From: an uncultured Candidatus Saccharibacteria bacterium
Lineage (GTDB): Bacteria > Patescibacteriota > Saccharimonadia > CAILAD01 > BJGX01
DNA: 64,000 nt
Direction: 5' to 3'
NCBI GenBank assembly: GCA_964552475.1
Contig: CAZKFZ010000001.1
Location: 35,347-99,346, forward strand
The translations under genes and the position numbers were made by a program. The notes below the pieces were generated by a model that was given only the letters and a program-made list of their open reading frames with translations, was not told where the DNA came from and made no database searches. Shown piece after piece: positions 3,636-60,250 of the stretch (positions within the stretch are counted from its first letter, which is position 1; the number at the start of each line of letters is the position of its first letter).

Positions 3636-3666
3636 TAAAAAACCACGCAATGTTTAAAAATTGCGT
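3636..3666 (-). terminator. rho-independent terminator for the 3682-3933 gene
   Basis: Hairpin ACGCAAT-gtttaaaa-ATTGCGT followed on the minus strand by GGTTTTTTAC, 16 nt downstream of the stop. Confidence 0.55.
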
Positions 3667-3681
3667 AGTTTTAGTGTGGGT

Positions 3682-4899: not shown

Positions 4900-4900
4900 T

Positions 4901-4936
4901 AAAAAAGCCTATCTCATCTAAGAGATAGGCTTTTTT
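4901..4936. terminator. bidirectional rho-independent terminator
   Basis: AAAAAAGCCTATCTC-atctaa-GAGATAGGCTTTTTT. Perfect 11-bp stem flanked by an A-run and a T-run, between convergent genes. Confidence 0.75.
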
Positions 4937-4941
4937 GGTTT

Positions 4942-5307
4942 TTACCTACTCACTACTTCACCGGCGGCGGGCGCTCCAGCACAATTAGGCGAGTTGGGTA
5001 CAACTTCTAGGTTGGTTTCACTCCCGTAGACAATAATCACTCGTGTATTACCGTCACAAAAGATCTCAATATCACTGTAGTTGGTTGAGAAAGAAAAAAC
5101 CTCTGGGGTACCAGGCTCGGTAGGGTACAGTGGTTCGTCGTAGATCTCAGCATCTTGGTTTGGGTCTGGCACATCGCTCGTGGCATTGTTGCTGTTGGTG
5201 TTAGAACCAGAGTCGCTATCGCTACCACAAGCGGCCAGCGAGCCTATTAGTAGTACAGCGACAACTACACTCATTATTACAAATACAACACTTCGCCTGC
5301 TTGGCAT
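4942..5307 (-). CDS. lipoprotein (hypothetical)
   Basis: 121 aa. Signal peptide ending in lipobox LAAC|GSDSDSGS. Low-complexity S/D/N linker. Confidence 0.55.
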   Translation of the reverse strand: MPSRRSVVFVIMSVVVAVLLIGSLAACGSDSDSGSNTNSNNATSDVPDPNQDAEIYDEPLYPTEPGTPEVFSFSTNYSDIEIFCDGNTRVIIVYGSETNLEVVPNSPNCAGAPAAGEVVSR

Positions 5308-6782: not shown

Positions 6783-9700
6783 ATGCCTGACAACTTACCC
6801 AAAATCAAAACTACGAAAGTAGTGTACCCGCAGATATATTCATATACTCTGCCTGAACATAAAGCCAATGAAGGCTCACAGAAGATAGGCTATACAGAAC
6901 GTAAAGATGTTGATGCTCGTATAAATGAACAAACTCACACTGCTGCAATTAAACTCAAGCCACAAAAGCTGTGGAGTGCACCATCTTTTTTTGCTGATAA
7001 TAAAAATGATTTCAACGACAAAACTTTTCATAAATTCTTAGTAAAAAATGGTGTAGAGAACAGGTTGGATTTGGGTAAGGAGTGGTTCTATTTTGATGGT
7101 ACGCCTGAGAAATCAAAAGAACTGTTTGATGCATTTCGTGAGCAAGGCTTTGCAGCTTTGCAAAATGTCGATAAAAAGATACCCTACTCTCTACGTACTG
7201 AGCAGCAAGCCGCAGTAACAATGGCAAAAAACTATTTTACAAAGCATAGTGGAGGTGAGGTATTATGGAATGCGAAGCCGAGATTTGGTAAAACTCTAGC
7301 TACGTACGATTTAGCCAAACAAATGCAAGCCAGAAAAGTATTGATTGTCACCAACCGACCTGCAATCGCTAACTCATGGCTGGATGATTTTGAGCAATTT
7401 GTCGAAGGTTATATGTTCATTTCTGAAACGTCTTCATTATCAAATCGCACCGCACTTACTAGAGAACAATTTGTCTCAACTTCTGTAGAGCTACCTCAAA
7501 TTACCTTTTTATCACTACAGGATATGAAAGGCTCAAGATATTTTGGTGGTGATTACGAAAAACTCGAGTGGGTTGCTGATCTCGAGTGGGATATGCTAGT
7601 GATCGATGAAGCCCATGAAGGGATCGATACAGAGCGTACTGACGCGGCCTTTGACATAGTCAAGCGAAAATATACACTGCATTTATCTGGCACGCCGTTT
7701 AAGGCTTTGGCAAATAATAAATTTCCTAAAGAAGCTATCTTTAATTGGACGTATCTTGATGAACAGAAAATCAAACAAGCAGAACTAGAAGAAAATGATA
7801 CGGGTGATCACACAGAACTACCAAACCTAAAGCTATATACATATAGAATTTCTGAGATGGTGGCGGATGAGGTGAATGAAGGAATAGAAATTGATAATGA
7901 AACACGTGATTTTGCATTTGATCTCAATGAATTTTTTGCTACTAAAGATCAGAAGTTTGTTCATGAAGAAGATGTACGGGAATTCTTAAAGAATCTTACT
8001 TCTAATACAAAATATCCTTTTTCAACCCCAGATCTACGTGAAGAACTACGCCATACATTTTGGTATGTTGGTAATAGAGTTGACTCAGTAAAAGCTCTTG
8101 AGCAGTTGTTAAAACAAGACGATATCCTTAAAGATTATAAGATAGTAGTAGCAGCCGGTGATGGTAAGTCATTTGAAGAAGAAGAAAATGACTTCTATGG
8201 CAACGAGAAATCGTTCGATAAAGTCAAGAAGGCTATTGCAGAAAACCCCAGAACCATTACTCTTTCTTGCGGTCAGCTCACAGCCGGTGTGACTATTAAA
8301 GAGTGGTCTGCCGTATTGATGCTTACCGATATAAAGACACCCGCTCAATATATGCAGGCAGCTTTTCGTGCTCAAAACCCACACAGATTTTATGAAGACG
8401 GTCAGCTAAAAGCAAAAGAATCTGCTTATCTATTTGACTTTGCACCAACAAGAGTATTGGAAATATACGACCAGTTTGCGAATGGATTGAATGGCAAAGC
8501 TGCTAATGGTGAAATAACAGAATCTGAACGCAAAGAAAATATCAAAGAGTTACTCAACTTTTTTCCTGTAATATCTGAAGATATAGATGGCAAGATGGTA
8601 GAGTTAGATGCAGAGAAGGTCCTTACATTCCCGAATGCACTAGCTGCAGCTGAAATCGTAAAAGCGCGCTTTATGACCAACTTGTTGTTCAATGACAATG
8701 TAAAAGGCGTATTTAGTTTTCCTAAAGAAGTAGAAGATATTCTCGACAAAATGCCAATAGAGAAAAACAAGCGTGCAGAAGTTGCTAAGAGTGTGCTAGA
8801 CCTTGATGATGCGCGTAAGTTTGAGCAGTCAAGAGAAGCCAAGATCAACGAAAACTCAGGTGTAATACTAGGCGAGAAGATATTCCGTTCGAATATCGAA
8901 CGAGTTGTAGACAACGCATTGAATGCCGAAACTACCGAAGAAATAATTGAAACATTGCCTGATAAGATTACCGAGCTAGCTGAGCCACTAATTGCAAAAT
9001 ACAAAGAAGTATACAAAGCAACAAACGCTGAGGTTGAAGAAATGAAAAAAGAAACAGATGAAAAGGTACGGCTAGTCGTTGCTGAATACGAAAGCTCTGA
9101 GATAAAAGACACGGCCAAGCTAAAAGAAAACCTTGCAAATGTAATTGAAAATGACCTGGTTATAGATAGAGTTGAACAAAAAGAAACAGAAGTAGTTGAG
9201 AAAGTTCAGAAGACAAAAGAAGAAGAAGTACGAGACCGTCTACGTTCGTTTACTCGCACTATACCAATGTTTATTATGGCGAACTCAACAAAAGAAACTA
9301 TCAACATAGATAATTTTGATGATCATATAGACGATAATGATTTTGAAGATCTTACCAATATCACTAAAGATGAGTTTTATAAGCTCAGAGATGGCTTTGA
9401 CTATGATGAGAATGGTGAACGCAAAACCTTTGGAGGGGTATTTGATCGCTACAAGTTCAATGCCTCAATAGCTGAGTTTGTAGCTGAGAAGCAAAAACGT
9501 GCTGACTACTTCAATACCCATGAGGATATATTCGAACTCATACCCAATCAGAAAAACAATCAGATATTTACACCTAGAAAAGTCGTGCAGATAATGATTA
9601 ACAGTTTAGAGAAAGAAAGCCCAGAACTTTTCGAAAGAACTGATAGTACTTTTATAGATCTATACATGAAGTCAGGTATGTATATTACTGAGATAGTCAA

Positions 9701-10997
9701 AAAGTTGTTTACCCATACTCGCAAGCACTATAATAGTGATACAGAGTGTTTAAAGCATATATTAGAAAATCAAGTATACGGTTTGGCACCCACCAAGGTG
9801 CTATATGATATTACCCAGTCGTATATATTTGGTTTCGATCAAAATAACAAAGTTAGTAACCACAATTTTGTTGAGCACGACTTACTGCCCGAGGCAAAAG
9901 ACGATACTGCAGCAAAGAAACTCGCACAATTATTTGGAAATGGAGGAAGTATGATGAAATTTGATGCCGTAGTGGGGAATCCACCGTATCAGGAAAATAG
10001 CGGAACAAGTGCCCGAGATGATGCTATATACAATTATTTTTACGACACTGCTGTACAGATAGCTGATAAATACTGCCTGATTTCGCCTGCACGCTTCTTA
10101 TTCAATGCCGGTAGTACCCCAAGACAATGGAATAAAAAAATGCTTAATGACACTCACTTGAAAATTATATCTTATGCGCACGACTCGTCAGCTGTTTTTC
10201 CTAATGTAGGTATTGCGGGTGGTGTAGTGATTATCTTTAGAGATGCTACTCAAGAATATGGAGCAATCGGTACATTTACAAGCTTTGATGAGCTAAATAG
10301 TATTGCGAGTAAAGTGAACACAGCCAGACAAGAAGCACTGACTAATATAATTTCAGGACGGGGTATATATAGGCTAACCCCGCAGCTGCATGAAGAACAC
10401 CCTGAAGTCAAAAATATGCAATCTGCTGGCCACAAAGACGATGTCGGGACGGGTGCATTTGATAAGTTTATCGGAATTATATTTTTTAAATCAAAACCGA
10501 ATGACGGAAAACATTACACACGCGTATACGGTAGGCTGGCCAATGAAAGAACTGATATGTGGATCAGGTCTGACTATATCAATAAACCATATGCAAATGA
10601 TAAGTATAGGGTCATTATTCCTAAAGCTTATGGTACTGGCATAACCGGAGTGGGTGTAACTGCAAGTTTGATTGGAAAACCTTTTGTTATTAAGCCTAAT
10701 GAAGCCTTTACAGAGATGTACATATCCATAGGCGATTTTGAGAGCGAACAAAGTGCTTTAAATGCTTTAAAATACGTAAAATCTAAGTTTGCGCGAGTGA
10801 TGCTAGCTGTCCTTAAGGTTACACAAGACAACACTAAAGAGAAATGGTCAAAAGTTCCACTCCAAGACTTCACATCGAACTCTGATATCGACTGGTCGAA
10901 ATCCATTCCAGAAATCGATCAGCAACTATATGCAAAGTATAAGTTATCAAAAGATGAAATAGAATTTATAGAGTCTCATGTTAAGCCCATGGTGTAG
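6783..10997 (+). CDS. single-polypeptide SNF2/DEAH-box helicase fused to Eco57I-type N6-adenine DNA methyltransferase (Type ISP-like restriction-modification or anti-restriction enzyme)
   Basis: 1404 aa. Helicase motifs: Walker A AKPRFGKT (motif I), VIDEAHEG (motif II DEAH), LHLSGTPF (motif III, SNF2/ResIII-like). A ~250-aa E/K-rich coiled-coil linker follows. MTase motifs: NQIFTPRKVV (motif X, FxxP) and VVGNPPYQ (motif IV NPPY, gamma-class N6-adenine). A ~250-aa C-terminal region could act as a target-recognition domain. The ~150-aa N-terminal domain has a possible GIY-YIG-like stretch (QIYSYTL...KIGYTERKDVDARINEQTH), unconfirmed. Confidence 0.8.
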   Translation: MPDNLPKIKTTKVVYPQIYSYTLPEHKANEGSQKIGYTERKDVDARINEQTHTAAIKLKPQKLWSAPSFFADNKNDFNDKTFHKFLVKNGVENRLDLGKEWFYFDGTPEKSKELFDAFREQGFAALQNVDKKIPYSLRTEQQAAVTMAKNYFTKHSGGEVLWNAKPRFGKTLATYDLAKQMQARKVLIVTNRPAIANSWLDDFEQFVEGYMFISETSSLSNRTALTREQFVSTSVELPQITFLSLQDMKGSRYFGGDYEKLEWVADLEWDMLVIDEAHEGIDTERTDAAFDIVKRKYTLHLSGTPFKALANNKFPKEAIFNWTYLDEQKIKQAELEENDTGDHTELPNLKLYTYRISEMVADEVNEGIEIDNETRDFAFDLNEFFATKDQKFVHEEDVREFLKNLTSNTKYPFSTPDLREELRHTFWYVGNRVDSVKALEQLLKQDDILKDYKIVVAAGDGKSFEEEENDFYGNEKSFDKVKKAIAENPRTITLSCGQLTAGVTIKEWSAVLMLTDIKTPAQYMQAAFRAQNPHRFYEDGQLKAKESAYLFDFAPTRVLEIYDQFANGLNGKAANGEITESERKENIKELLNFFPVISEDIDGKMVELDAEKVLTFPNALAAAEIVKARFMTNLLFNDNVKGVFSFPKEVEDILDKMPIEKNKRAEVAKSVLDLDDARKFEQSREAKINENSGVILGEKIFRSNIERVVDNALNAETTEEIIETLPDKITELAEPLIAKYKEVYKATNAEVEEMKKETDEKVRLVVAEYESSEIKDTAKLKENLANVIENDLVIDRVEQKETEVVEKVQKTKEEEVRDRLRSFTRTIPMFIMANSTKETINIDNFDDHIDDNDFEDLTNITKDEFYKLRDGFDYDENGERKTFGGVFDRYKFNASIAEFVAEKQKRADYFNTHEDIFELIPNQKNNQIFTPRKVVQIMINSLEKESPELFERTDSTFIDLYMKSGMYITEIVKKLFTHTRKHYNSDTECLKHILENQVYGLAPTKVLYDITQSYIFGFDQNNKVSNHNFVEHDLLPEAKDDTAAKKLAQLFGNGGSMMKFDAVVGNPPYQENSGTSARDDAIYNYFYDTAVQIADKYCLISPARFLFNAGSTPRQWNKKMLNDTHLKIISYAHDSSAVFPNVGIAGGVVIIFRDATQEYGAIGTFTSFDELNSIASKVNTARQEALTNIISGRGIYRLTPQLHEEHPEVKNMQSAGHKDDVGTGAFDKFIGIIFFKSKPNDGKHYTRVYGRLANERTDMWIRSDYINKPYANDKYRVIIPKAYGTGITGVGVTASLIGKPFVIKPNEAFTEMYISIGDFESEQSALNALKYVKSKFARVMLAVLKVTQDNTKEKWSKVPLQDFTSNSDIDWSKSIPEIDQQLYAKYKLSKDEIEFIESHVKPMV

Positions 10998-11000
10998 TTA

Positions 11001-11969
11001 GTGGTAGCCAAGCCTAGCATTGATATTTTTGAGAATTCTCTCCGCTCAAGAGGTAATTTACTAGATATATTACTTCTTGATCGTACTACTAAGAAAAATA
11101 TAATTTGGGCTACAGACTCATATAACAAAGCTCAAAAGAATAATAGTTTTTCACCGCGTAGGCAAATAAAACCAGAGCTTGTTACGGGCAAAGTTTATGG
11201 CCAACTTATACAACCAAGAGCTGCAAAACCACTATACGAGCAGCGTAAGCGTACCAAAGACAAAGCGGAGGTTTTCACACCATTACGTGTAGTAGACCAA
11301 ATGAACAAGCATATAGACTGGTCTAGTAGTTATCCACCAAACAAAGATAACTGGCAGGACTATGTGAAACAGCTAAAACTAGAGATAACATGTGGCGAAG
11401 CACCTTTTATGGTAGGAAGGTACAACCCAGATGCTCACACAGGTAAACTGATACAACTATACACTAAGACTGGCAAGCCAAACCGAGTAGGGTTTTTAGA
11501 TCGCAAGCTATACATAGTTTCAAAATATTGCAACAAGCATAGTCAGTGGGTACATTGGGCAAAAGAAGCATTTAAGGCAAGTTATGGATATGAGTGGCAG
11601 GGTGACAATATACTTATAGCTCGTGAGAATTTACTATATACATTTATAGATTTCTATGTAGATAAATTCAAACGTCGCCCATCGTTAAAATTACAAGAAG
11701 AGATTGCAGAGATAATAAGCTGGAATATATTTCAAATGGATGGGCTAAAATATGTAGTACCTATGAGCTGTAAACACATCAATAGAGTAATCCCCGGCGA
11801 GCTTACACTTTTTGGTGAGACACCAGACAGAGTAGAGAAAGACGAATGCGATGGATGTAAGTTACAAAAACCATACAAGCATAACGGTAAGTATGTAAAA
11901 ATAATGGATTGGGAGAAAAATACCACCATAAAGTTCGTTGATCTAATAACACAAAACGACGGCTTGTAA
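11001..11969 (+). CDS. hypothetical Cys-cluster protein translationally coupled to the helicase-MTase gene
   Basis: 322 aa. GTG start 3 nt after the upstream stop. Contains an AEVFTPLRVVDQM motif reminiscent of MTase motif X but no NPPY. C-terminal CKH...C-x2-C cluster (MSCKHIN...DECDGCK). Confidence 0.55.
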   Translation: MVAKPSIDIFENSLRSRGNLLDILLLDRTTKKNIIWATDSYNKAQKNNSFSPRRQIKPELVTGKVYGQLIQPRAAKPLYEQRKRTKDKAEVFTPLRVVDQMNKHIDWSSSYPPNKDNWQDYVKQLKLEITCGEAPFMVGRYNPDAHTGKLIQLYTKTGKPNRVGFLDRKLYIVSKYCNKHSQWVHWAKEAFKASYGYEWQGDNILIARENLLYTFIDFYVDKFKRRPSLKLQEEIAEIISWNIFQMDGLKYVVPMSCKHINRVIPGELTLFGETPDRVEKDECDGCKLQKPYKHNGKYVKIMDWEKNTTIKFVDLITQNDGL

Positions 11970-12052
11970 CCATCGTTTTGCTGGGAGGTGTAGCTTTTCT
12001 AGCGCTTTAGTACTGTCACTACCTAGCTCTCTATAAACCAGCTACTTTTCCA

Positions 12053-12277
12053 TTAACCTCTTGGTGGGAACGGGTCGTTACCGTAAGTCTCACGGTTTTC
12101 AATTGTACCATCTAATTTTTGAATAACTAATTCACTAGGTTGATTTTGTTTAGCAGTAAGTCTGCCTGTTTGCACAACTTTTATCTTTAGTGTATCCACG
12201 AAAAGTACCTTTTTATTATGTGTAAGCGCCCAGCTAGTTTTTGCTGGAGACACATAGTAGTATTTTCTCATCCACAC
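12053..12277 (-). CDS. hypothetical small protein
   Basis: 74-aa ORF, the only one in this gap, with no recognisable motif. The real start may be the second Met (MRKYYYV). Confidence 0.35.
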   Translation of the reverse strand: MWMRKYYYVSPAKTSWALTHNKKVLFVDTLKIKVVQTGRLTAKQNQPSELVIQKLDGTIENRETYGNDPFPPRG

Positions 12278-12531
12278 TCCTTTCTATTACAGAACAATGT
12301 TCACCCTCCCTGTAATTTACAAGGGTAGACTACGAAAGTCTAACGATATTATAGCAAAAATATACCGAACAATAAAATCATACACATCTTTAAATTTTAA
12401 GATCAGTTTTATGTAAATTGAATATAAAAATTACATAATCAACAGGGAATAGGTATAATATATTGTGTGGATATATAATATACAGAGTAATTTATATAAT
12501 TTAATATAAAGATTAAAAAAGGAATAAATAA

Positions 12532-12912
12532 ATGGCAAAGTATGTAGATGGGTTTGTACTAGTTGTGCCCAAAGGTAAAGAAACTGAGTACCAAGAAATG
12601 GCTAAAATGGGCAGAGACTCGTGGATGAAACACGGTGCTTTGCAATACTTTGAGTGCCGAGGTGACGACCTAGTACAACATGAGCAAGGCGACGAAAAAT
12701 CGCGAGATTTTAAAGAAATGGCTGGTGCGGGAGCCGACGAAAACGTATGGTTCTCTTTTATAGTTTTTAAATCTAAAGAGCATAGAGACGAAGTAAACAA
12801 AAAAGTAATGCAAGAGATGGGCGAGGAGTACAAAGACCAAACTGATTTTGAAATGCCCAACGACATGAAAAAAATGGCCTATGGCGGTTTTGAGGTTGTA
12901 GTAGAGGGTTAG
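12532..12912 (+). CDS. DUF1428 (YbaA-like) protein
   Basis: 126 aa. MAKYVDGFVLVVPKGKE...HGALQYFECRGDDL...KKMAYGGFEVVVEG matches the YbaA/DUF1428 fold end to end. AGGAA RBS. Confidence 0.8.
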   Translation: MAKYVDGFVLVVPKGKETEYQEMAKMGRDSWMKHGALQYFECRGDDLVQHEQGDEKSRDFKEMAGAGADENVWFSFIVFKSKEHRDEVNKKVMQEMGEEYKDQTDFEMPNDMKKMAYGGFEVVVEG

Positions 12913-12962
12913 TAAAAGAATCAATGATTGAATGTTCGTAGTATGTTTGGTATATTATATTT

Positions 12963-13790
12963 ATGAGCAACGAAACTAGCATAGCATTGTTTAATGACAA
13001 AGAAGTGCGCAAAACTCTGCATAAAAATGAGTGGTGGTTTTGTATTATTGACGTGGTAGAAATACTTACAGATTCTGTTGATGCTGGTGCATATTGGCGC
13101 AAACTTAAGCAAAGGCTTTTACAAGAGGGTGGCGACCAAACCGTGACAAATTGTCACAGTTTGAAAATGACAGCAAAAGACGGCAAACAACGCAACTTTG
13201 ATGCCATGAAGACAGAGGATATACTACGACTTATACAATCTATACCTTCACCCAAGGCCGAGCCGTTTAAGCGTTGGCTAGCACAAGTAGGTAGTGAGAG
13301 AATTGCTGAGATAGATAACCCCGAGCTTGCCACCGAACGTATGCGCAAGCTATATGAAGCCAAGGGGTACTCGAAAGGCTGGATAGATAAGCGTGTGCGA
13401 GGCATCAATGTACGAGACGAGCTAACAAGCGAATGGAAACAACGAGGCGTAAAAGAGGGCAGAGAGTACGCTATACTTACCAACGATATTTCAAAAGCAA
13501 CATTTGGTATGACAGCGACAGAATATAAAAAACATAAGAGCTTACAACTCGAGAATTTGCGTGATCATATGACAGATCTTGAGCTTATATTTACTATGCT
13601 TGGTGAAGCTGCCACTACAGAAATAGCGCGCAATAAAGATGCACAAGGTTTTTGGCAAAATAAAATGGCAGCTAATCAAGGCGGAAAGATAGCGGGTGAC
13701 GCGAGGGGCAAGCTAGAAAAAGAAAGTGGCAAAAGAGTTGTGAGTAAAGGTAACTACTTAGATAACAACGGCGCAAATAAACTCAAATAA
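12963..13790 (+). CDS. DinD/BRO-N-family protein (DNA-damage-inducible protein D-like)
   Basis: 275 aa. KRWLAQVGSERIAEIDNPELATERMRKLYEAKGYSKGWIDKRVRGI and the C-terminal ARNKDAQGFWQNKMAANQGGKIAGDARGKLEKESGKRVV resemble E. coli DinD and phage Bro-N/antirepressor proteins. Confidence 0.65.
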   Translation: MSNETSIALFNDKEVRKTLHKNEWWFCIIDVVEILTDSVDAGAYWRKLKQRLLQEGGDQTVTNCHSLKMTAKDGKQRNFDAMKTEDILRLIQSIPSPKAEPFKRWLAQVGSERIAEIDNPELATERMRKLYEAKGYSKGWIDKRVRGINVRDELTSEWKQRGVKEGREYAILTNDISKATFGMTATEYKKHKSLQLENLRDHMTDLELIFTMLGEAATTEIARNKDAQGFWQNKMAANQGGKIAGDARGKLEKESGKRVVSKGNYLDNNGANKLK

Positions 13791-15896: not shown

Positions 15897-16442
15897 TTAG
15901 TAAACTATTTTGAGCTGGCTGTTTGGCTCAATAACTGTAGTAAGGGCGTTGGGCGACTCTACACCATTAATATAAAAGCGCAATTGCTGTGCTGAGTTGG
16001 TACAAAAGGTTTGCTTGGTACCGGTAACTATACATTTGGTATCTACACTCATAGGTAGAGTAGTAAACAGATCACCCCAGGTAATGTTAGGTTTGGTAAC
16101 TACCACCTGTACCTGGCTAGAGCCTTCGGGCGGTATGTATACATCGGCCGATTTGTTGTGATAACGCGGGTCGGTAAATATGCGGGTTTCACCATTTATA
16201 ATAATTTGAAAAGTAGCTGTATATGGGGTAAATACCGGTACAGTCGTAGGTTGGCTATTGTTTTGGCTGGTGCTGGCTGGTGCAGTTGTTTTAGCTCTTG
16301 TGAGATACAAGTAGCCAGCAAGAACTATAATAATAGAAACAAAGATAGCAAAAGCTACTAAATACTTATTACTACGTCTTTTTTTTGCATTTTTCATACG
16401 GCTAGTATAGCAACAATTGGTAGTACATAAAACTATTGACAT
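15897..16442 (-). CDS. secreted/membrane-anchored hypothetical protein
   Basis: 181 aa. Basic N-terminus, one TM (LVAFAIFVSIIIVLAGYLYL), then a T/P/S-rich linker and a beta-rich C-terminal domain. Confidence 0.5.
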   Translation of the reverse strand: MSIVLCTTNCCYTSRMKNAKKRRSNKYLVAFAIFVSIIIVLAGYLYLTRAKTTAPASTSQNNSQPTTVPVFTPYTATFQIIINGETRIFTDPRYHNKSADVYIPPEGSSQVQVVVTKPNITWGDLFTTLPMSVDTKCIVTGTKQTFCTNSAQQLRFYINGVESPNALTTVIEPNSQLKIVY

Positions 16443-16464
16443 TTACGCTAGTTTGTGCTAGTAT
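16436..16464 (+). promoter_or_regulatory. sigma70-like promoter for the GC-rich gene at 16505
   Basis: TTGACA, 17 nt spacer, TAGTAT. A GAGAGA RBS sits 5 nt before the ATG at 16505. Confidence 0.5.
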
Positions 16465-16504
16465 AGTTAGGCTCAAGTAAATCTACTGAAAGAGAGATGA
16501 GCAC

Positions 16505-16921
16505 ATGAACATCGACATCAGTGATCTCGACCGTGCAGCCGTGTTGGCCGCGCTCTTCAATGGGGCACGGGCTCAGGGCCTCGGTTTCATCGCTCACCAG
16601 GACGGCGACATGACCGTCGAGCAGGCTCAGGCCATCCTCAACTCCGGTACGACCTACTTCGACTACCTGCAGGGTAGGGTGATGAAGGTCGACCTCTCCG
16701 GCGACTCGTTCGACCCCTGGGGCTACGACCGCGACAACGGCGAGGGCGCTGCCCACTCCGTCATCCGCTCGCTGCGGCAGACCGGCTCGGCCTCCAACGT
16801 GGAGACCAGGCATCTGCACCAGCACGGCATGGCCGCCGCAGCCGACGAGCTTCGGGAGCACTACGGCGACGATCTCGCCGACGAGCTGGTCGGCGCCCGC
16901 CGACCGGTCAGCGAAAGCTGA
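16505..16921 (+). CDS. hypothetical protein with high-GC (actinobacterial-like) codon usage
   Basis: 138-aa ORF with strong G/C third-position bias (atc gac ctc gcc ...), in sharp contrast to the ~40% GC neighbours. The translation is protein-like. The antisense ORF 16448-16960 is judged a high-GC artefact. Confidence 0.6.
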   Translation: MNIDISDLDRAAVLAALFNGARAQGLGFIAHQDGDMTVEQAQAILNSGTTYFDYLQGRVMKVDLSGDSFDPWGYDRDNGEGAAHSVIRSLRQTGSASNVETRHLHQHGMAAAADELREHYGDDLADELVGARRPVSES

Positions 16922-17095
16922 CAAAAAGGTTTGCCAGTTCCTTTCAAAAACTGGCTCCACCTAAGTGTTTAATGATATTAAATTGAAAATTTGGGTGGCA
17001 AAAGGTTCCTTGCTGAGTATTAATCTAATGCTAAGTAAGGAGCTTTTAGCAAATAAAAGCTTTGTACCTGTCCCCAAAAAAAAGGAAAATGCAAA

Positions 17096-17539
17096 ATGAG
17101 TCGACGCTCACTCATGCAGTTGTCGTTTGTGGTGTTTACTACCGCGCTCAGCGTGGCGTACTACCACATCTACATGTCGCTCGACACCTTGGCGCGTCAA
17201 GCGCTTATCGAGATGGGCGACACCACCTACTACCCGCCAGAGAATCAGCTCTGGGTAGCTACCAAGATCGTCGCAATCTCAGCTACCTTCGTGGGTGCTG
17301 GCATGGTGGCACTGATGTTTTTTGCCTACCTTCTCATTATGGCAATGTGCAACCAAGAGATCAACTCAGCCATTCGTGACTGCGAAGAACTTGGTGGCAC
17401 GCTCACCTCAGAACCCATTAAGGTGTGCCACTGGTACAGCTACGACTGGTCGCTAACCGGTGAGTTGCCCAGCGGCGAGGAGTACATTCGCTACAACGGC
17501 GACAACTTCTTCGAGGTTTTTCCGTTCGTACACCACTAG
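17096..17539 (+). CDS. hypothetical membrane protein (GC-rich)
   Basis: 147 aa. Three hydrophobic helices then a Cys-containing soluble tail. AGGAAA RBS. Elevated GC. Confidence 0.55.
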   Translation: MSRRSLMQLSFVVFTTALSVAYYHIYMSLDTLARQALIEMGDTTYYPPENQLWVATKIVAISATFVGAGMVALMFFAYLLIMAMCNQEINSAIRDCEELGGTLTSEPIKVCHWYSYDWSLTGELPSGEEYIRYNGDNFFEVFPFVHH

Positions 17540-17557
17540 GGCCAAGTAGGCCCGCAG

Positions 17558-17589
17558 GGCCCCAACAATTGTTGGGGCCCTTTACCTAT
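17558..17589. repeat. copy 1 of a 22-nt perfect palindrome plus conserved tail (terminator-like repeat element)
   Basis: GGCCCCAACAATTGTTGGGGCC followed by CTTTACCTAT. The same 32-nt element with one substitution recurs at 19803-19834. It can fold as a 9-bp stem, AATT loop and T-rich tail. Confidence 0.8.
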
Positions 17590-17597
17590 AAAACATC

Positions 17598-17626
17598 TTG
17601 CAAATTTATAAATTTACTAGTATAAT
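17598..17626 (+). promoter_or_regulatory. sigma70-like promoter for the flotillin-like gene
   Basis: TTGCAA, 17 nt spacer, TATAAT, about 45 nt upstream of the ATG at 17672. Confidence 0.55.
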
Positions 17627-17671
17627 ACTGCATCGGAATGTATTTCCTAAACGAAAGGTCCAACAAAGGAC

Positions 17672-19765
17672 ATGGTACCTTCCAATACATATGTACTAGG
17701 CGCATCTGAGGGACTCCCAATTGTGCCTATTGTGCTTGGAGTTGTTGCATTTATTGCGCTACTTATCGTGGCGCGATTTATCGTAAAGAGCTTCAATATG
17801 ATTGGCCCAGATGAGTTTGGGTTGGTAGAGAAGCGCCTGGGCAAGAAGTTGCCAGAGGGTCAGTTAATCGCTTTTAACGGCGAGGCCGGCTATCAGGCGG
17901 AGTTGCTTCAGCCAGGCTTACGCTTCAAGCTCTGGCCTCTGTATTGGGTCACTAAGTACCCTCTGGTGCAGGTTGCTGCCGGTGAGATTGGTCTTGTTGT
18001 GGCCCAGGCCGGTGGTGATTTACCCCCAGGCTTCAAGTCTGGTGTCTACAAAGACGAGTTTGGTCTTTTTGCCAACCTAGAAACGTTTATTCAGAACGGT
18101 GGACAGCGTGGCGTGCAGAGACAGGTTTTGCCTCCGGGTACAACCCAGCAGATGCACCCTATCGCATTCATTGTACGGACTCGGTCTGAGACTTTCGGCA
18201 CGGTTTTGTCGGAGTCGGCTGAGGAAGTGCTGAATAGAATTCCGCCCGAAAAATTGGTGCCGTTCACTATTGAACCCCAGGGTCATACCGACGTAGTGGG
18301 TGTGGTTACTACACTCGAAGGCGCTCCGGCCAAAGGCATCGCCAGTCGGCTTGGTAACTTCGACGATGTAGTAGAAGCTGAGGCAGCAGATACGGCGGCT
18401 AACACCATCATCACAACGGTGCTTGCGCCCAAAAACAACCTGCACAACAACTACCAGGATTTCCAGGCTTTTCTGGATGCTGGTGGGTGCATTGGCCTCC
18501 AGCACGATCCACTACTTTACGGGCAGTACATGCTAAACCCCTACCTGGTTTCAGTTGAGCTTCGCGAGATGCTCGTTGTGCGCCAGGGCGAGGTTGCTGT
18601 GGTTAAGGCCTACGTAGGCCTACCCACCGAAGATACGTCTGGCGAGGAGTTTAAGTTTGGCTCTATTGTAGAGCCAGGTCATCAGGGTATTTGGTCGGAG
18701 CCACTGCGCACCGGCAAGTACACCCTTAACCCACGCATTTACGAGGCCGAGATTGTACCGACCTCTATCCTTACACTCAACTGGGCCAATGCAACCAGCG
18801 AGGCTCACAACCTCGATGGTTCGTTGTCGTCGATTCACGCCAAGAGCAAGGAAGCGTTCGATTTTAGCATTGATCTGCAGGTGCAGATTCACGTGCCCGA
18901 CACTCGAGCACCCAAGGTTATTAGCATGGTTGGTACCATGCAGAACCTGGTTAATGAGGTTCTGCAGTCGGCGGTAGGCAACTACTTCCGTAATACACTG
19001 CAGTCTCTAGGCGCCGCTGAGTTCATTCAGAAGCGTGACGAAGTCCAGGCCCAGGCCGAGAACTACGTCATGGGTTACCTCTCGCGTTATGAGGTAGAGG
19101 TGCGCGGTGTTTACATCCAGGATGTGGTCTTCCCACCAGAGTTGGTAGAGGTGCTTACAACGCGAGAAATCGCAGCACAGCAGACTCAAACCTACCAGAG
19201 CCAGATGGTAGCCGAGCAGGCTCGAATTGACCTGGAGAACCAAAAGGGCGTGGCCGATGCCCAGGCCGATTTGGCAAGGGCTCGGGTTTCGGTGGATGTT
19301 AACGATGCCGAGGCTCAGGCTGCGGTTAAGCGTGCTGAAGGTGAGGCTGCGGTCGTGCGTCAACGCGGTCAGGCTGCTGCCGATGTTACAAAGCTGACAG
19401 GTGAGGCTGAGGCTGCTGCCACACAAGCTACTGGTTTGGCCGAGGCCAAGGCCACCGAGGCCAAGGGTCTCGCGGTCGCCAAGGGCTTCGATGCTCAGCA
19501 GCGGGCTATTGGCCGTCAGCAGACTGGTTTGGTTGCTGCACTCGAGCAGATTGGCAAGGGTGGAGTGGTACTCACTCCGCAGATTCAGGTTGGTGGTGAC
19601 TCAGTAGGCTCTGGTCTACTAAACACCCTAATGACCTTAGGTGTCGATAAGATGGTGAACGACAACGGCGAGGGTTCGCCCGAGCTGGAGGCCGTTGATG
19701 CGTCGTCCGATGCTGAAGCCTCGGCTGAGCCGAGCGATGAAGCACCGTCAACCAACGAAGACTAA
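17672..19765 (+). CDS. SPFH/band-7 flotillin-family protein
   Basis: 697 aa. N-terminal TM, SPFH core (KSFNMIGPDEFGLVEKRLGK...), long C-terminal A/E/Q-rich repeats (AEAQAAVKRAEGEAAVVRQRGQAAAD...) typical of flotillin. Acidic tail. Elevated GC. Confidence 0.75.
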   Translation: MVPSNTYVLGASEGLPIVPIVLGVVAFIALLIVARFIVKSFNMIGPDEFGLVEKRLGKKLPEGQLIAFNGEAGYQAELLQPGLRFKLWPLYWVTKYPLVQVAAGEIGLVVAQAGGDLPPGFKSGVYKDEFGLFANLETFIQNGGQRGVQRQVLPPGTTQQMHPIAFIVRTRSETFGTVLSESAEEVLNRIPPEKLVPFTIEPQGHTDVVGVVTTLEGAPAKGIASRLGNFDDVVEAEAADTAANTIITTVLAPKNNLHNNYQDFQAFLDAGGCIGLQHDPLLYGQYMLNPYLVSVELREMLVVRQGEVAVVKAYVGLPTEDTSGEEFKFGSIVEPGHQGIWSEPLRTGKYTLNPRIYEAEIVPTSILTLNWANATSEAHNLDGSLSSIHAKSKEAFDFSIDLQVQIHVPDTRAPKVISMVGTMQNLVNEVLQSAVGNYFRNTLQSLGAAEFIQKRDEVQAQAENYVMGYLSRYEVEVRGVYIQDVVFPPELVEVLTTREIAAQQTQTYQSQMVAEQARIDLENQKGVADAQADLARARVSVDVNDAEAQAAVKRAEGEAAVVRQRGQAAADVTKLTGEAEAAATQATGLAEAKATEAKGLAVAKGFDAQQRAIGRQQTGLVAALEQIGKGGVVLTPQIQVGGDSVGSGLLNTLMTLGVDKMVNDNGEGSPELEAVDASSDAEASAEPSDEAPSTNED

Positions 19766-19802
19766 TTCGTACCTAGTACATGTAGAATAAATTGTACCCA
19801 AA

Positions 19803-19834
19803 GGCCCCAACAATTGTTGGGGCCTTTTACCTAT
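19803..19834. repeat. copy 2 of the 22-nt perfect palindrome plus tail; also the likely terminator of the flotillin gene
   Basis: GGCCCCAACAATTGTTGGGGCC followed by TTTTACCTAT, 38 nt after the stop at 19765. Confidence 0.8.
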
Positions 19835-19972
19835 TTAAAATCCCAAAACACAAATATAACTATAATCTACTAGGTATAATGTAAGTTTTATAAAATCAAG
19901 ACTAAACTACCCTGGTCTATTTATAAGTAGTATAATATACATCAATACTAAAACAGTTAAGCTTTGTAAAAA

Positions 19973-20641
19973 ATGTATAATCTAATACCTAAAGAATTTC
20001 TAAGAATAATTTACTCGCAACACAGTAAAGAGTTGGGTAAAAATCTTGCTGGTATAGTGTTGTGCGGTAGTGCAGCCAACCATAGCCTAGATCGTGACTC
20101 CGATATAGACTATGTTGTGATAGTTAAAAATTTAGATAAAAATAGCTACAAAGTCTTGGCTGATTTACGGCTTGCACTAGAAAAGCAACTTGGTTTGCAG
20201 TGCAGTAATACTGTTGTTGAGTATCACTCTATTAGAGATTTAAAAAACAACTATATGTACTTAGACGGTAAAGCAGTACAAGCCTGTATTGACTCAAACG
20301 CACAAAATACTTTACTAAATAAGAGTTATGCCATACCTAAGCTAGATTCTAGTACGGTCCGAAAGTTTTCGGCTCTAGATTTTCATAAGCTAAAAGCTCT
20401 TACTATTAAACAACTAGTAAGAATGTCTAATCCAGCTAGCTACAGCGAGAGACGTAAAGTAATAAAATTAGCTTATATTTTATGTAAAGTTTATGCACAG
20501 GCTAGTACAACTACTCAAGAAAAAGAGTATATGGATAGCATTAGAGACTCACTAATGTCAATAAAAAACAATATTCGCAAATATAATGATAGTCAGCTTT
20601 TTGAGGTTATTGCTAGAATAATTTCTCTAAATCTTCACTAG
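19973..20641 (+). CDS. minimal nucleotidyltransferase (Pol-beta superfamily; KNTase/Lnu-like)
   Basis: 222 aa. LCGSAANHSLDRDSDIDYVVIV is the G[GS]-x(9-13)-D-x-[DE] nucleotidyltransferase signature. Helical C-terminal domain. Confidence 0.6.
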   Translation: MYNLIPKEFLRIIYSQHSKELGKNLAGIVLCGSAANHSLDRDSDIDYVVIVKNLDKNSYKVLADLRLALEKQLGLQCSNTVVEYHSIRDLKNNYMYLDGKAVQACIDSNAQNTLLNKSYAIPKLDSSTVRKFSALDFHKLKALTIKQLVRMSNPASYSERRKVIKLAYILCKVYAQASTTTQEKEYMDSIRDSLMSIKNNIRKYNDSQLFEVIARIISLNLH

Positions 20642-21698
20642 GCTCTATAAAAAATTTTAGTTTTTCCCATAATGACATTTGTGTATTTGCAAACAAATGA
20701 GAAAAAACAAGAGATAGTTTTTGGTCTTCAATACTCATCTTGCTTAGTATAAAAGTTGTAAGCAGGCGAAACGAAATCGCTAGACTGGCTTGATCTAAGT
20801 ATGTTTTATGGTTTGCAACACTTAGTTTATTTATGTAATACTCAACAAATTGCAAAACTAGTTCTTGCCTGCTTGAATCTATATTTACTTTAATATTATT
20901 ACTATATATAGAAAAACATTTTGGTTTGGTAGCTAGTTGTTGAGATGTTTCTTGGCTAGCCCATTTGGCATATTTTGGGCCAAAATAATTGCCGGCAAAT
21001 AAAGTATGCCATAAAAATGTAGCTATGTCGGTAGCAATATGATTAAACCCAGCACCCTCAAAATCAACTATCGCGCCGCTGGTAAAAATATTGCGCTCGT
21101 GTAAGTCTCCTTGAGAGGGAACACAAATACCCAAACTAAAATCCTGAACTCCAGTGGCGATGTTTGTAAAAAAATCCGACTCCAATTTGGTTTTATAATT
21201 GCCAATACTAGGTAGATAGTTATGAATATTGCTACTAAGTAAACTTTTTAACTCAGGCTTAAAAAGTCTAGGCAATCTATCTAAATAAAATAGCTGAGTA
21301 CCACCATTAGAGTTGGTTTTAGACCAATTGGTGTTGGCGATAGTAGCTAGCTCTTGCCACAGTGAACTTAAGTCTGGAGTTTGGCCTAGCGAGAGGGCAT
21401 CGCCAACAGTAGTGCTATTGGCGCCTACGTTTTGGTAGTGAATTTCTAAACCATCTTTGTTTATTGAGAGACGGTTTGGGATGTTTTTATAGTAATGGCT
21501 AATAAAATCGTAGCCATTTAGCTCTAAATTGAACTGCTTGGCAGAATCAAAACGTTTTGTCACCGTGGGCTGGTGACTGTTATTAAATTTGTTAGGCTTT
21601 ACACGAAGCATAATAAATAGTATAATATCGCATAATTTAACAATTATCAATATGGCTAAGACAATAATCGAAATTTCCGGTCCAGATTTTGTAGGCAA
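20613..21698 (-). CDS. APH/choline-kinase-family phosphotransferase
   Basis: Brenner motif GDLHERNIF (HGDLHxxN) and IVDFEGAGFNHIATDIA (DFE...D). The first Met gives 361 aa and overlaps the divergent kinase gene. The internal Met at 21611 (MLRVKP) gives 333 aa with no overlap and is the more likely start. Confidence 0.6.
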   Translation of the reverse strand: MPTKSGPEISIIVLAILIIVKLCDIILFIMLRVKPNKFNNSHQPTVTKRFDSAKQFNLELNGYDFISHYYKNIPNRLSINKDGLEIHYQNVGANSTTVGDALSLGQTPDLSSLWQELATIANTNWSKTNSNGGTQLFYLDRLPRLFKPELKSLLSSNIHNYLPSIGNYKTKLESDFFTNIATGVQDFSLGICVPSQGDLHERNIFTSGAIVDFEGAGFNHIATDIATFLWHTLFAGNYFGPKYAKWASQETSQQLATKPKCFSIYSNNIKVNIDSSRQELVLQFVEYYINKLSVANHKTYLDQASLAISFRLLTTFILSKMSIEDQKLSLVFSHLFANTQMSLWEKLKFFIEPSEDLEKLF

Positions 21699-40886: not shown

Positions 40887-40890
40887 AATA

Positions 40891-40918
40891 AAACCACCAT
40901 ATACTTGGTGGTTTTTTA
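40891..40918. terminator. bidirectional rho-independent terminator
   Basis: AAAACCACCA-tatact-TGGTGGTTTTTT between the convergent paralog-B and rplU genes. Confidence 0.75.
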
Positions 40919-40937
40919 CTTTTACGTTATTAGTATT

Positions 40938-59378: not shown

Positions 59379-59388
59379 TTAATACACA

Positions 59389-59418
59389 AGCCCCTAGGAC
59401 ATTATTCTAGGGGCTTTT
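59389..59418 (+). terminator. rho-independent terminator
   Basis: AGCCCCTAG-gacattatt-CTAGGGGCT followed by TTTT, 11 nt after the stop. Confidence 0.7.
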
Positions 59419-59430
59419 ACTTATGTGGCA

Positions 59431-60174: not shown

Positions 60175-60201
60175 AAAACCCCTACTACCGTAGGGGTTTT
60201 T
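60175..60201 (+). terminator. rho-independent terminator
   Basis: AACCCCTAC-tacc-GTAGGGGTT followed by TTT. Confidence 0.7.
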
Positions 60202-60250
60202 ACTTTGCCAAAAACACTACATATAGCATTAAAAACTTGTGCTTTAGCTA

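Follow-up and report, generated by a model that had tools for sequence, protein, structure and literature searches.

A palindromic hairpin on either side of a flotillin-like gene in a Saccharibacteria genome: probably a copied terminator rather than a mobile-element scar

Short palindromes 3′ of genes and short direct repeats around a gene are features of several described bacterial systems, and the two elements that flank a flotillin-like gene in the 64-kb stretch of Saccharibacteria DNA analysed here (the whole of which is referred to as the window) share traits with each of them. As in intrinsic terminators, a GC-rich stem-loop with a C-rich 5′ arm and a G-rich 3′ arm is located a few tens of nucleotides past a stop codon, compensatory and G·U changes keep the pairing, the tail is like those of other terminators of this genome, and the downstream element (copy 2) has an A-run on its 5′ side and a T-run on its 3′ side. 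Unlike in typical intrinsic terminators, the U-run is limited to 3-4 nt, with a conserved ACCUAU behind it, and two neighbouring genes possess virtually the same terminator, an arrangement with no other example in the window. REP elements and BIMEs are also short palindromes in 3′ intergenic regions and can stabilise or terminate transcripts; however, REPs are imperfect and RAYT-linked and are repeated tens to hundreds of times, whereas the palindromes of this locus are perfect, are present in two copies and are accompanied by no transposase. Integron cassettes likewise combine a palindrome, attC, 3′ of successive co-oriented genes with breaks at the 3′ end of the element and a high gene turnover. 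In contrast to the palindrome described here, which is perfect over 22-28 nt, an attC site is an imperfect palindrome that includes extrahelical bases and R''/L''-L'/R' boxes, and the other genes of this locus end in unrelated hairpins; neither an imperfect boxed palindrome nor an array beside intI was found here, and no intI-type recombinase is encoded by the genes called in the examined loci (±10 kb). Finally, the att repeats of prophages and genomic islands are, as here, direct repeats of about 30 nt that bracket a compositionally foreign gene, but the present locus has no integrase, no tRNA and no exact empty site, and its repeat does not bound the GC-rich region.

The features of the locus are given below; loci from other assemblies are denoted by L numbers.

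16505..16921, + strand: 138-aa gene, GC 0.662, left start of the GC-rich stretch; 91% amino acid identity to the L012 gene call at 8836-9255
17096..17539, + strand: open reading frame of the 147-aa gene, 54% GC, owner of terminator copy 1
17556..17589, + strand: terminator copy 1 (predicted), 26-nt perfect palindrome, 11-bp stem, AAUU loop, tail to ...TTTACCTAT
17598..17626, + strand: flotillin promoter candidate, TTGCAA-17-TATAAT (consensus scan)
17672..19765, + strand: flotillin-like gene, 697 aa, SPFH/Band-7 (YqiK/flotillin-like; Pfam PF01145, E = 5.7e-20), 55% GC
19800..19834, + strand: terminator copy 2 (predicted), 28-nt perfect palindrome, 12-bp stem, AAUU loop, tail to ...TTTACCTAT
19835..19921, + strand: AT-rich orphan spacer with promoter-like TATAAT boxes, in the place of the 65-aa gene of L012, L013 and L025
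19973..20641, + strand: 222-aa nucleotidyltransferase-domain gene (Pfam PF01909), 33% GC, the next gene downstream; 81% amino acid identity to L012 12580-13248

The 138-aa gene had no Pfam match, the 147-aa gene has few homologues (P0121-P0127), and PADLOC returned nothing for either of them or for the flotillin gene. A plasmid database search gave no match, and nothing relevant was found in a literature search.

The 22-nt palindrome GGCCCCAACAATTGTTGGGGCC occurs at 17558-17579 and 19803-19824; these were the only two matches in the 64-kb window when up to 3 mismatches were allowed, while none is expected in shuffled sequence (100 shuffles). Each 22-mer is followed by the tail (C/T)TTTACCTAT, giving two 32-nt units in direct orientation (GGCCCCAACAATTGTTGGGGCC plus YTTTACCTAT) at 17558-17589 and 19803-19834 with a sole difference, C at 17580 and T at 19825. 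A sequence-only reading of this DNA had described just such a duplicated 22-nt palindrome with a 10-nt tail and a single differing base, and this description was confirmed, except that the palindromes are in fact longer: since the C/T difference in the tail is matched by G/A across the stem, they extend to 26 nt in copy 1 (aG and Ct around the 22-mer, 17556-17581) and to 28 nt in copy 2 (aaA and Ttt, 19800-19827). The apparent tail difference is thus the 3′ half of a compensated pair, G-C in copy 1 and A-T in copy 2. The distance of 82 nt from the end of copy 1 to the flotillin ATG (17672) stood as previously given, and that from the flotillin stop (19765) to the 22-mer of copy 2 was measured as 37 nt instead of 38. 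Ungapped similarity between the copies reaches 40 nt at 90%, but past the tail it is only marginal, with 53 of 2000 shuffles reaching as high a score, and no extension of the repeat was found 5′ of the hairpin; extension of the repeat into the flanks was consequently rejected. The same layout is seen in independent assemblies, with L028 and L029 matching the window at copy 1 and L012, L013, L014 and L025 carrying both copies, and the duplicated hairpin is therefore not an assembly artefact.

Both elements are most likely Rho-independent (intrinsic) terminators, or at least 3′-end stem-loops, of the sense strand, with a presumed termination activity. The hairpins start 17 nt past the stop codon of the 147-aa gene and 35 nt past that of the flotillin gene, on the coding strand both times. 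RNA folding yielded −27.5 kcal/mol (z = −4.8) for copy 1 and −21.7 kcal/mol (z = −4.4) for copy 2, with 0 of 200 shuffles as stable in either case; each copy is a stable GC-rich stem-loop closely 3′ of a stop. Across the 4 distinct hairpin variants, the only ones at hand, 97.7% of the cells are paired. Pairs altered on both sides (n = 2) are the stem-base G-C, which is A-U in copy 2, and an A-U that is G-C in L018, and the one-sided changes (n = 3) all result in G·U, which is paired in the sense strand only. Among these 4 variants it is the pairing rather than the sequence that is conserved in the transcribed strand. The L013 ortholog of copy 2, GGCTTC...GGGGCC (TTTTACTTAT), keeps its G·U pairs in the sense strand only, and its sense and antisense folds differ (−17.7 vs −12.2), as do those of the L018 hairpin (−21.1 vs −16.5). 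This strand asymmetry of folding favours an RNA hairpin rather than a symmetric DNA site.

The asymmetric tail is of the kind usual for terminators of this genome: T{3,}AC[CT]T was found on 6 of the 30 post-ORF hairpins in the window, for instance in GGGGCTTTTACTTAT at 59388-59423, with about 0.15 expected from a background of 4.1e-4 per nt. Many copies at ordinary gene ends, which the sequence-only reading had named as the mark of a generic terminator family, were thus observed for the tail but not for the hairpin. A point against a terminator is the short U-tract, CUUU for the first copy and UUUU for the second, each followed by ACCUAU; the sequences 3′ of the stems are CUUUACCUAU and UUUUACCUAU, and neither hairpin is listed by a simple terminator scan requiring at least 5 T in 8. 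An Rfam search with the hairpin gave a sub-threshold sRNA-like match only. The position after two co-oriented stops, the sense folding, the compensatory and wobble changes and the tail shared within the genome all support the duplicated terminator that had been proposed earlier as one of the possibilities.

As judged from its occurrence in relatives, copy 1 is most likely the native, long-standing terminator of the 147-aa gene family. In L017, which is without flotillin, the 147-aa gene is followed by the identical 32 nt as a single copy and then by a cation ATPase, and in L024, also without flotillin, by a single copy of the same hairpin with one tail change and then by a 127-aa-type gene. 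The flotillin-less loci L018-L023 possess a compensated orthologous hairpin after the 147-aa gene; in L018, where the 127-aa gene is next, the central 12 nt and the loop are altered with the pairing kept. Copy 1 is identical in L013, L017, L025, L028 and L029. The identity covers 32 of 32 positions, loop and tail included, even in lineages in which the neighbouring 147-aa gene has a nucleotide identity of no more than 74-84%. This identity is tighter than pairing alone needs, which hints at an additional sequence-specific constraint and counts against a plain terminator.

Copy 2 was found only in the window and the L012/L013/L025 lineages. The flotillins of L006 and L015 (71-72% amino acid identity) end in unrelated hairpins. 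The -10 box of the promoter candidate and the 5′ UTR behind it are conserved in L013 and in L006, and the UTR less closely in L015. Flotillin is followed by the 65-aa gene in L013 and by a 69-aa gene in L006; these two are homologues (64% aa), and the block of flotillin and small gene, which has a different hairpin in L006, is therefore older than copy 2. The closing A-U pair and the tail T of copy 2 are common to the window and L013, and the copying therefore predates the split of these two, whose flotillin genes are 80% identical in nucleotide sequence. The spacer at 19835..19921 does not align significantly with L013 7084-7496 (an equal score is reached by 920 of 1000 shuffles), and alignment to L013 resumes from 19922, the NTP_transf_2 promoter region; the right flank is TTAAAATCCC in the window and AAAAAGTGATATAAT in L013. 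A candidate second duplicated pair, the two hairpins that flank flotillin in L006 and share the tail TTTTCATTTACAG, was not accepted as a sign of duplication: tails of this type occur on other terminators of L006 and L017, and the upstream one of the two hairpins is that of a 228-aa gene which is also present in the flotillin-less L018.

We consider it probable that no mobile element left these two hairpins, and that they are ordinary terminators of which the second was copied from that of the upstream gene. Copy 1 would then end the transcript of the 147-aa gene and insulate the flotillin promoter, and copy 2 would end the flotillin transcript. Some 34-38 nt of the 147-aa terminator would have been copied, presumably in the direction from the 147-aa gene to flotillin, and copy 2 would have taken over as the terminator of flotillin in an ancestor that the window lineage shared with the L012/L013/L025 lineage. 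The setting would be a hypervariable gene-flux locus in which neighbouring genes are swapped and between-lineage homology breaks just past the terminator tails. One candidate route is a tandem duplication of terminator, promoter and flotillin, after which the second flotillin copy was lost together with the old terminator; a second is recombination of the short-homology or illegitimate type in the course of module shuffling. Against this account, the copy comprises the terminator alone, without flanking gene sequence, which is not what a simple segmental duplication leaves, and between-lineage homology repeatedly stops exactly at the tail end, as junction-specific recombination would predict as well.

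It is unlikely, in our view, that the flotillin promoter and gene were inserted at the 147-aa terminator with duplication of a target of about 34 nt, either an att-like core or a long target-site duplication, so that the copies mark the ends of the insert. Such an event would fit the direct 32-nt repeats at both ends of exactly one promoter and gene unit, the break of homology exactly at the tail end, the polymorphic presence of flotillin among related lineages, and the foreign appearance of the gene, with 55% GC vs 41% in the window and the nearest outside homologues being Actinomycetota-type at 62-69%. Flotillin-less relatives do have a single copy beside the same upstream gene, as had been anticipated for an empty site, but the matching right flank is missing: a search with homologues of the 147-aa and 65-aa genes (in which L026 and L027 end before the terminator) revealed no locus with one copy and the same flanks on both sides. 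L017, L024 and L018 share the left flank only, and their right flanks all differ. To the right of the single copy lies the cation ATPase (L017) or the 127-aa gene (L024, L018); neither the 65-aa gene nor the 222-aa gene nor the spacer of the window is ever located there. Moreover, the linkage of flotillin to the 65/69-aa gene in L013 and L006 places copy 2 inside a block and not at its edge, and the flotillins of L006 and L015 occur without the repeat. The segment between the repeats holds only flotillin, and no integrase or transposase was called within ±10 kb in L012, L013 and L025 or among the window ORFs tested. Nor do the repeats lie at the boundary of GC-rich DNA, which starts at 16505, about 1 kb left of copy 1, and includes the 138-aa gene (GC 0.66) and the 147-aa gene (GC 0.54). 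The wobble changes also point to selection on RNA and not on a symmetric DNA site. The att-like or MITE-like scar of an insertion that brought in GC-rich cargo, as suggested by the sequence-only reading, is thus not supported, there being no exact empty site, no recombinase within 10 kb in close relatives and no dispersed copies, and the GC-rich DNA starting left of copy 1.

Every between-lineage homology break that we examined is located 0-4 nt from the end of a terminator tail. Because of these breaks, and of a terminator copied without flanking gene sequence, it might be speculated, at a rather slim probability, that terminator hairpins and their tails serve as favoured joining points at which promoter-gene-terminator modules are shuffled within a hypervariable, defence-rich Saccharibacteria locus, in an integron-like manner without a dedicated integrase. 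Natural transformation and short-homology joining would perhaps drive such shuffling, and the duplicated terminator may then be the footprint of one joining event.

We regard as very unlikely a role of the 22-nt palindrome as a symmetric operator or activator site, bound by a dimeric regulator that co-regulates the flotillin promoter and the boxes after flotillin. In favour of such a site, the palindrome is perfect and its loop is self-complementary, TATAAT boxes follow both copies at a distance of about 45-60 nt, and copy 1 is invariant in four lineages; yet the spacing from copy to -10 box is not equal in the two copies, and the palindrome of L017 and L024 stays with the upstream gene, the promoters and genes behind it being unrelated. 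In addition, copy 2 of L013 (GGCTTC/GGGGCC) loses the DNA symmetry and keeps the RNA pairing, and the altered central 12 nt and loop of L018 also retain pairing.

The exact 22-mer was found at 3 loci in 185,579 species genomes (one per species), in a syntenic Saccharibacteria MAG and in two Bacteroidota genomes, where the preceding 124-aa gene is unrelated and the tail is absent. With a degenerate 22-mer, two matches in metagenome contigs were rejected as unrelated terminator-like hairpins, and viral contigs gave no matches. That a small mobile palindromic element of the MITE or REP type landed at two gene ends, as its short palindromic form 3′ of genes and the same 22-mer after an unrelated gene in two Bacteroidota might suggest, is most improbable, given that many dispersed copies were found neither in the 64-kb window (just 2 at up to 3 mismatches) nor in the related MAG of the genome collection (one exact match only) nor, in any related form, in the metagenome or viral collections, that the copies have neither a target-site duplication nor a RAYT or IS200/IS605-type gene nearby, and that the tailless, mutually orthologous Bacteroidota copies fit convergent terminators.

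The homologues of the flotillin comprise a few Saccharibacteria-type loci at 71-87% and then hundreds at 62-69%, and those of the latter with a source name are from Acidimicrobiales/Actinomycetota. By this distribution, the flotillin gene looks to have been acquired from Actinomycetota, the phylum of the known Saccharibacteria hosts. Co-transfer with the 147-aa gene was rejected, as an unrelated gene is located upstream of the Acidimicrobiales flotillin and no such hairpins are present there. Two genes that share one terminator sequence are, taken alone, an ordinary feature; their value is that of a marker, here of a 147-aa gene terminator re-used by the flotillin gene in a locus that turns over fast between related epibiont genomes. 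The lineage-typical tail of a T-run and ACYT could, furthermore, help to predict terminators and operons more accurately in these uncultivated bacteria.

The palindrome GGCCCCAACAATTGTTGGGGCC occurs exactly twice in the window, at 17558-17579 and 19803-19824, and is directly followed by (C/T)TTTACCTAT in both copies; allowing up to three mismatches brought out no further copy in the window, and shuffled sequence is expected to contain none. The pair described in the sequence-only reading is real, but the length of 22 nt given there is too short, as the palindromes span 26 and 28 nt. Therefore, the sole difference in the 'tail' is one half of a compensated G-C/A-T pair. The ungapped similarity between the copies covers 40 nt at 90%; past the tail it is marginal, with 53 of 2000 shuffles scoring equally well, and 5' of the hairpin none was found. 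Both copies are also present in independent assemblies (L012, L013, L014 and L025), and at copy 1 two further independent assemblies (L028 and L029) do not differ from the window. The elements are arranged as follows.

16505-16921: upstream gene, 138 aa, GC 0.66
17096-17539: upstream gene, 147 aa, GC 0.54
17556-17581: copy 1 palindrome, aG[22]Ct, 26 nt
17598-17626: candidate promoter TTGCAA-17-TATAAT, 3' of copy 1
17672-19765: gene between the repeats, 697-aa SPFH/Band-7 (YqiK/flotillin-like) protein
19800-19827: copy 2 palindrome, aaA[22]Ttt, 28 nt
19835-19921: orphan spacer; homology with L013 resumes at 19922
19973-20641: downstream gene, 222-aa nucleotidyltransferase-domain protein

Both hairpins lie on the coding strand, starting 17 nt (copy 1) and 35 nt (copy 2) past a stop codon, and have stems of 11-12 bp capped by an AAUU loop. 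Their fold energies are -27.5 and -21.7 kcal/mol, respectively, and none of 200 shuffles was equally stable. Across four distinct hairpin variants, a small sample, 97.7% of the cells are paired; two pairs have changed on both sides, and each of the three one-sided changes results in a G.U pair in the sense strand. In copy 2 of the L013 lineage CC has changed to TT, which preserves G.U pairing in RNA of the flotillin sense (-17.7 kcal/mol) but not in the antisense strand (-12.2). In these four variants, the pattern of two-sided and one-sided changes and the preference for sense over antisense folding speak for selection at the level of an RNA hairpin rather than a symmetric DNA site. We therefore favor one of the two explanations originally offered, a duplicated, putative intrinsic terminator, with which the position and strand of the hairpins, their stability, the maintained pairing and a tail usual for this genome agree. 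Transcription termination as such is something we infer only, because the U-run is short and a consensus scan flagged neither copy.

The asymmetric tail is not confined to the pair. Among the 30 hairpins of the window that lie no more than 120 nt past the end of an ORF, 6 are followed by T{3,}AC[CT]T, where about 0.15 would be expected by chance (background rate 4.1e-4 per nt); thus, it is the tail usual for terminators in this genome. Hairpins with this motif include:

59388-59423: tail-motif example, GGGGCTTTTACTTAT
40890-40925: further tail-motif hairpin
60175-60210: further tail-motif hairpin
3639-3672, minus strand: further tail-motif hairpin
4900-4949: seventh tail-motif hairpin

The motif is strongly enriched after hairpins and may belong to the termination signal or serve as a processing site. 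In contrast to the T-run and AC(C/T)T of the window, the recurrent terminator tail in L006 and L017 is TTTT(C)ATTTA(C/G)A (in L006 at hairpins 4663, 7806, 10135 and, on the minus strand, 13124).

The 147-aa gene has few homologues, which occur in flotillin-less contexts. In L017 (76% amino acid identity) the identical 32 nt are located directly 3' of the gene, followed by unrelated sequence and a cation ATPase. In L024 (80%) the same hairpin, with CTTTCCCTAT, precedes the promoter that belongs to a 127-aa-type gene. In L018-L023 (62%) the homologue is followed by GGGCCCCGA-tgaaatat-TCGGGGTCC TTTTCTAT, an orthologous hairpin in which an A-U pair has become G-C, one pair is G.U and the loop differs. 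As the same or an orthologous hairpin follows the gene without flotillin, copy 1 is its native, long-standing terminator. Copy 1 is identical at 32 of 32 positions across lineages whose 147-aa genes share 74-84% nucleotide identity, a conservation beyond that needed for pairing. In L024 (1-960), the 147-aa gene is directly preceded by a reverse-transcriptase gene (RVT_1, E = 3e-11), which may be of the defence type; Rfam detected no group II intron RNA on this contig.

Copy 2 is limited to the window and the L012/L013/L014/L025 lineage, where it reads GGCTTCAACAATTGTTGGGGCC TTTTACTTAT. Among named relatives, the closest is a MAG of an uncultured Candidatus Saccharibacteria bacterium (L003/L013); it is syntenic with the window and matches positions 15897-19834 at 82.5% identity. 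Flotillin genes whose products share 71-72% amino acid identity (L006-L011, L015) have unrelated hairpins at their 3' ends. The flotillin neighborhood of L006 is that of the window, with a DUF1905 gene and a 181-aa gene on the left and TMEM175, a 73-aa gene, DUF6790 and a 541-aa gene on the right. The gene immediately upstream of the L006 flotillin, encoding 228 aa, is non-homologous to that of the window, and its hairpin is also found 3' of the same gene in the flotillin-less L018. The small genes after flotillin in L013 (65 aa) and L006 (69 aa) are homologous (64% amino acid identity); therefore, the block of flotillin and small gene predates copy 2, which lies inside it. Copy 2 is thus best regarded as a terminator replacement and not as a block boundary, and the 65-aa gene has since been lost from the window.

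The copied portion is the terminator alone, about 34-38 nt, without flanking gene sequence. In every comparison made, homology between lineages stops at the end of the tail or no more than 4 nt from it (window/L013 at 19834, window/L017 at 17589, window/L024 at 17593, L018/L006 at L006 7840). Intergenic regions of 80-130 nt must hold terminator, promoter and 5' UTR, and selection alone would therefore put surviving breakpoints there; a junction-specific process is a less likely source of the breaks. The flotillin 5' UTR is conserved among lineages with differing upstream genes (window 17627-17671, L013 4875-4917, L006 7955-8000), with the pattern tataata.tgcatcggaa.gtatt.cct...gaaaGGTCC....aGGACatg and a small GTCC/GGAC stem beside the start codon.

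The other explanation, an att- or MITE-like insertion, was not supported. Flotillin-less relatives do carry a single copy after the 147-aa gene (L017, L024), but an exact empty site was not found among these lineages, because what lies to the right of the single copy is different in each. Apart from the two copies in the window, the palindrome is not dispersed, occurring at three loci in 185,579 species genomes, namely the syntenic MAG and two Bacteroidota genomes. In the latter (a Flagellimonas genome, L001 5865-5886, and a Bacteroidia MAG, L002 202-223) the identical 22 nt follow an unrelated 124-aa lipoprotein-like gene and have ordinary T-rich tails instead of that of the pair, and the similarity is probably a convergent terminator sequence. 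A metagenome collection yielded unrelated hairpins only, viral contigs none, and Rfam and a plasmid collection no match; neither integrases nor transposases were found among the called genes within 10 kb on either side in L012, L013 and L025, nor tRNA genes in the window. That the repeats bound a GC-rich cargo is contradicted by the per-gene GC values (flotillin gene 0.55; around it and the 138- and 147-aa genes 0.33-0.42), by which the GC-rich stretch already starts about 1 kb to the left of copy 1.

At 66% GC, the 138-aa gene has the highest value in the region; it is 91% conserved at the amino acid level in L012, adjoins the 147-aa gene in most relatives, is completely overlapped by a 170-aa antisense ORF (16448-16960) and had no Pfam or PADLOC match. 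The 222-aa protein has weak PADLOC matches to PDC-S09 and oligonucleotide cyclase (E = 1e-6 to 8e-4); its gene and a convergent ORF of 361 aa (20613-21698), which has a faint APH-like match, overlap by 29 nt at their 3' ends. Left of the repeats, the locus (window 6783-13790 and matching parts of L006, L012, L019, L024 and L025) is variable and of defence type:

6783-10997: type IIG restriction-methylase
11001-11969: type II methylase
12963-13790: PDC-S13 candidate (E = 4e-120), absent from L003

The counterparts are type I R-M and DUF3800 in L012, type I R-M and a Shedu-like SduA_C gene in L025, a methylase and an NgoFVII-type nuclease in L006, and another methylase in L019.

Homologues of the flotillin comprise a handful of Saccharibacteria-type loci at 71-100% identity, followed by hundreds of proteins at 62-69%, of which those with a named source are from Acidimicrobiales/Actinomycetota. 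A protein (P0001) retrieved by homology search, on an NCBI contig of 205,628 nt, is 100% identical over the full length; an exact-sequence look-up nevertheless returned no record, which looks like an index gap. The identity of the homologues and a GC content of 55% in a genome of 41% (window GC about 41%) suggest acquisition from Actinomycetota, the phylum of the known Saccharibacteria hosts. The locus is of modest side interest, for its apparently Actinomycetota-derived flotillin, its hypervariable, defence-rich neighborhood and its lineage-typical terminator tail.
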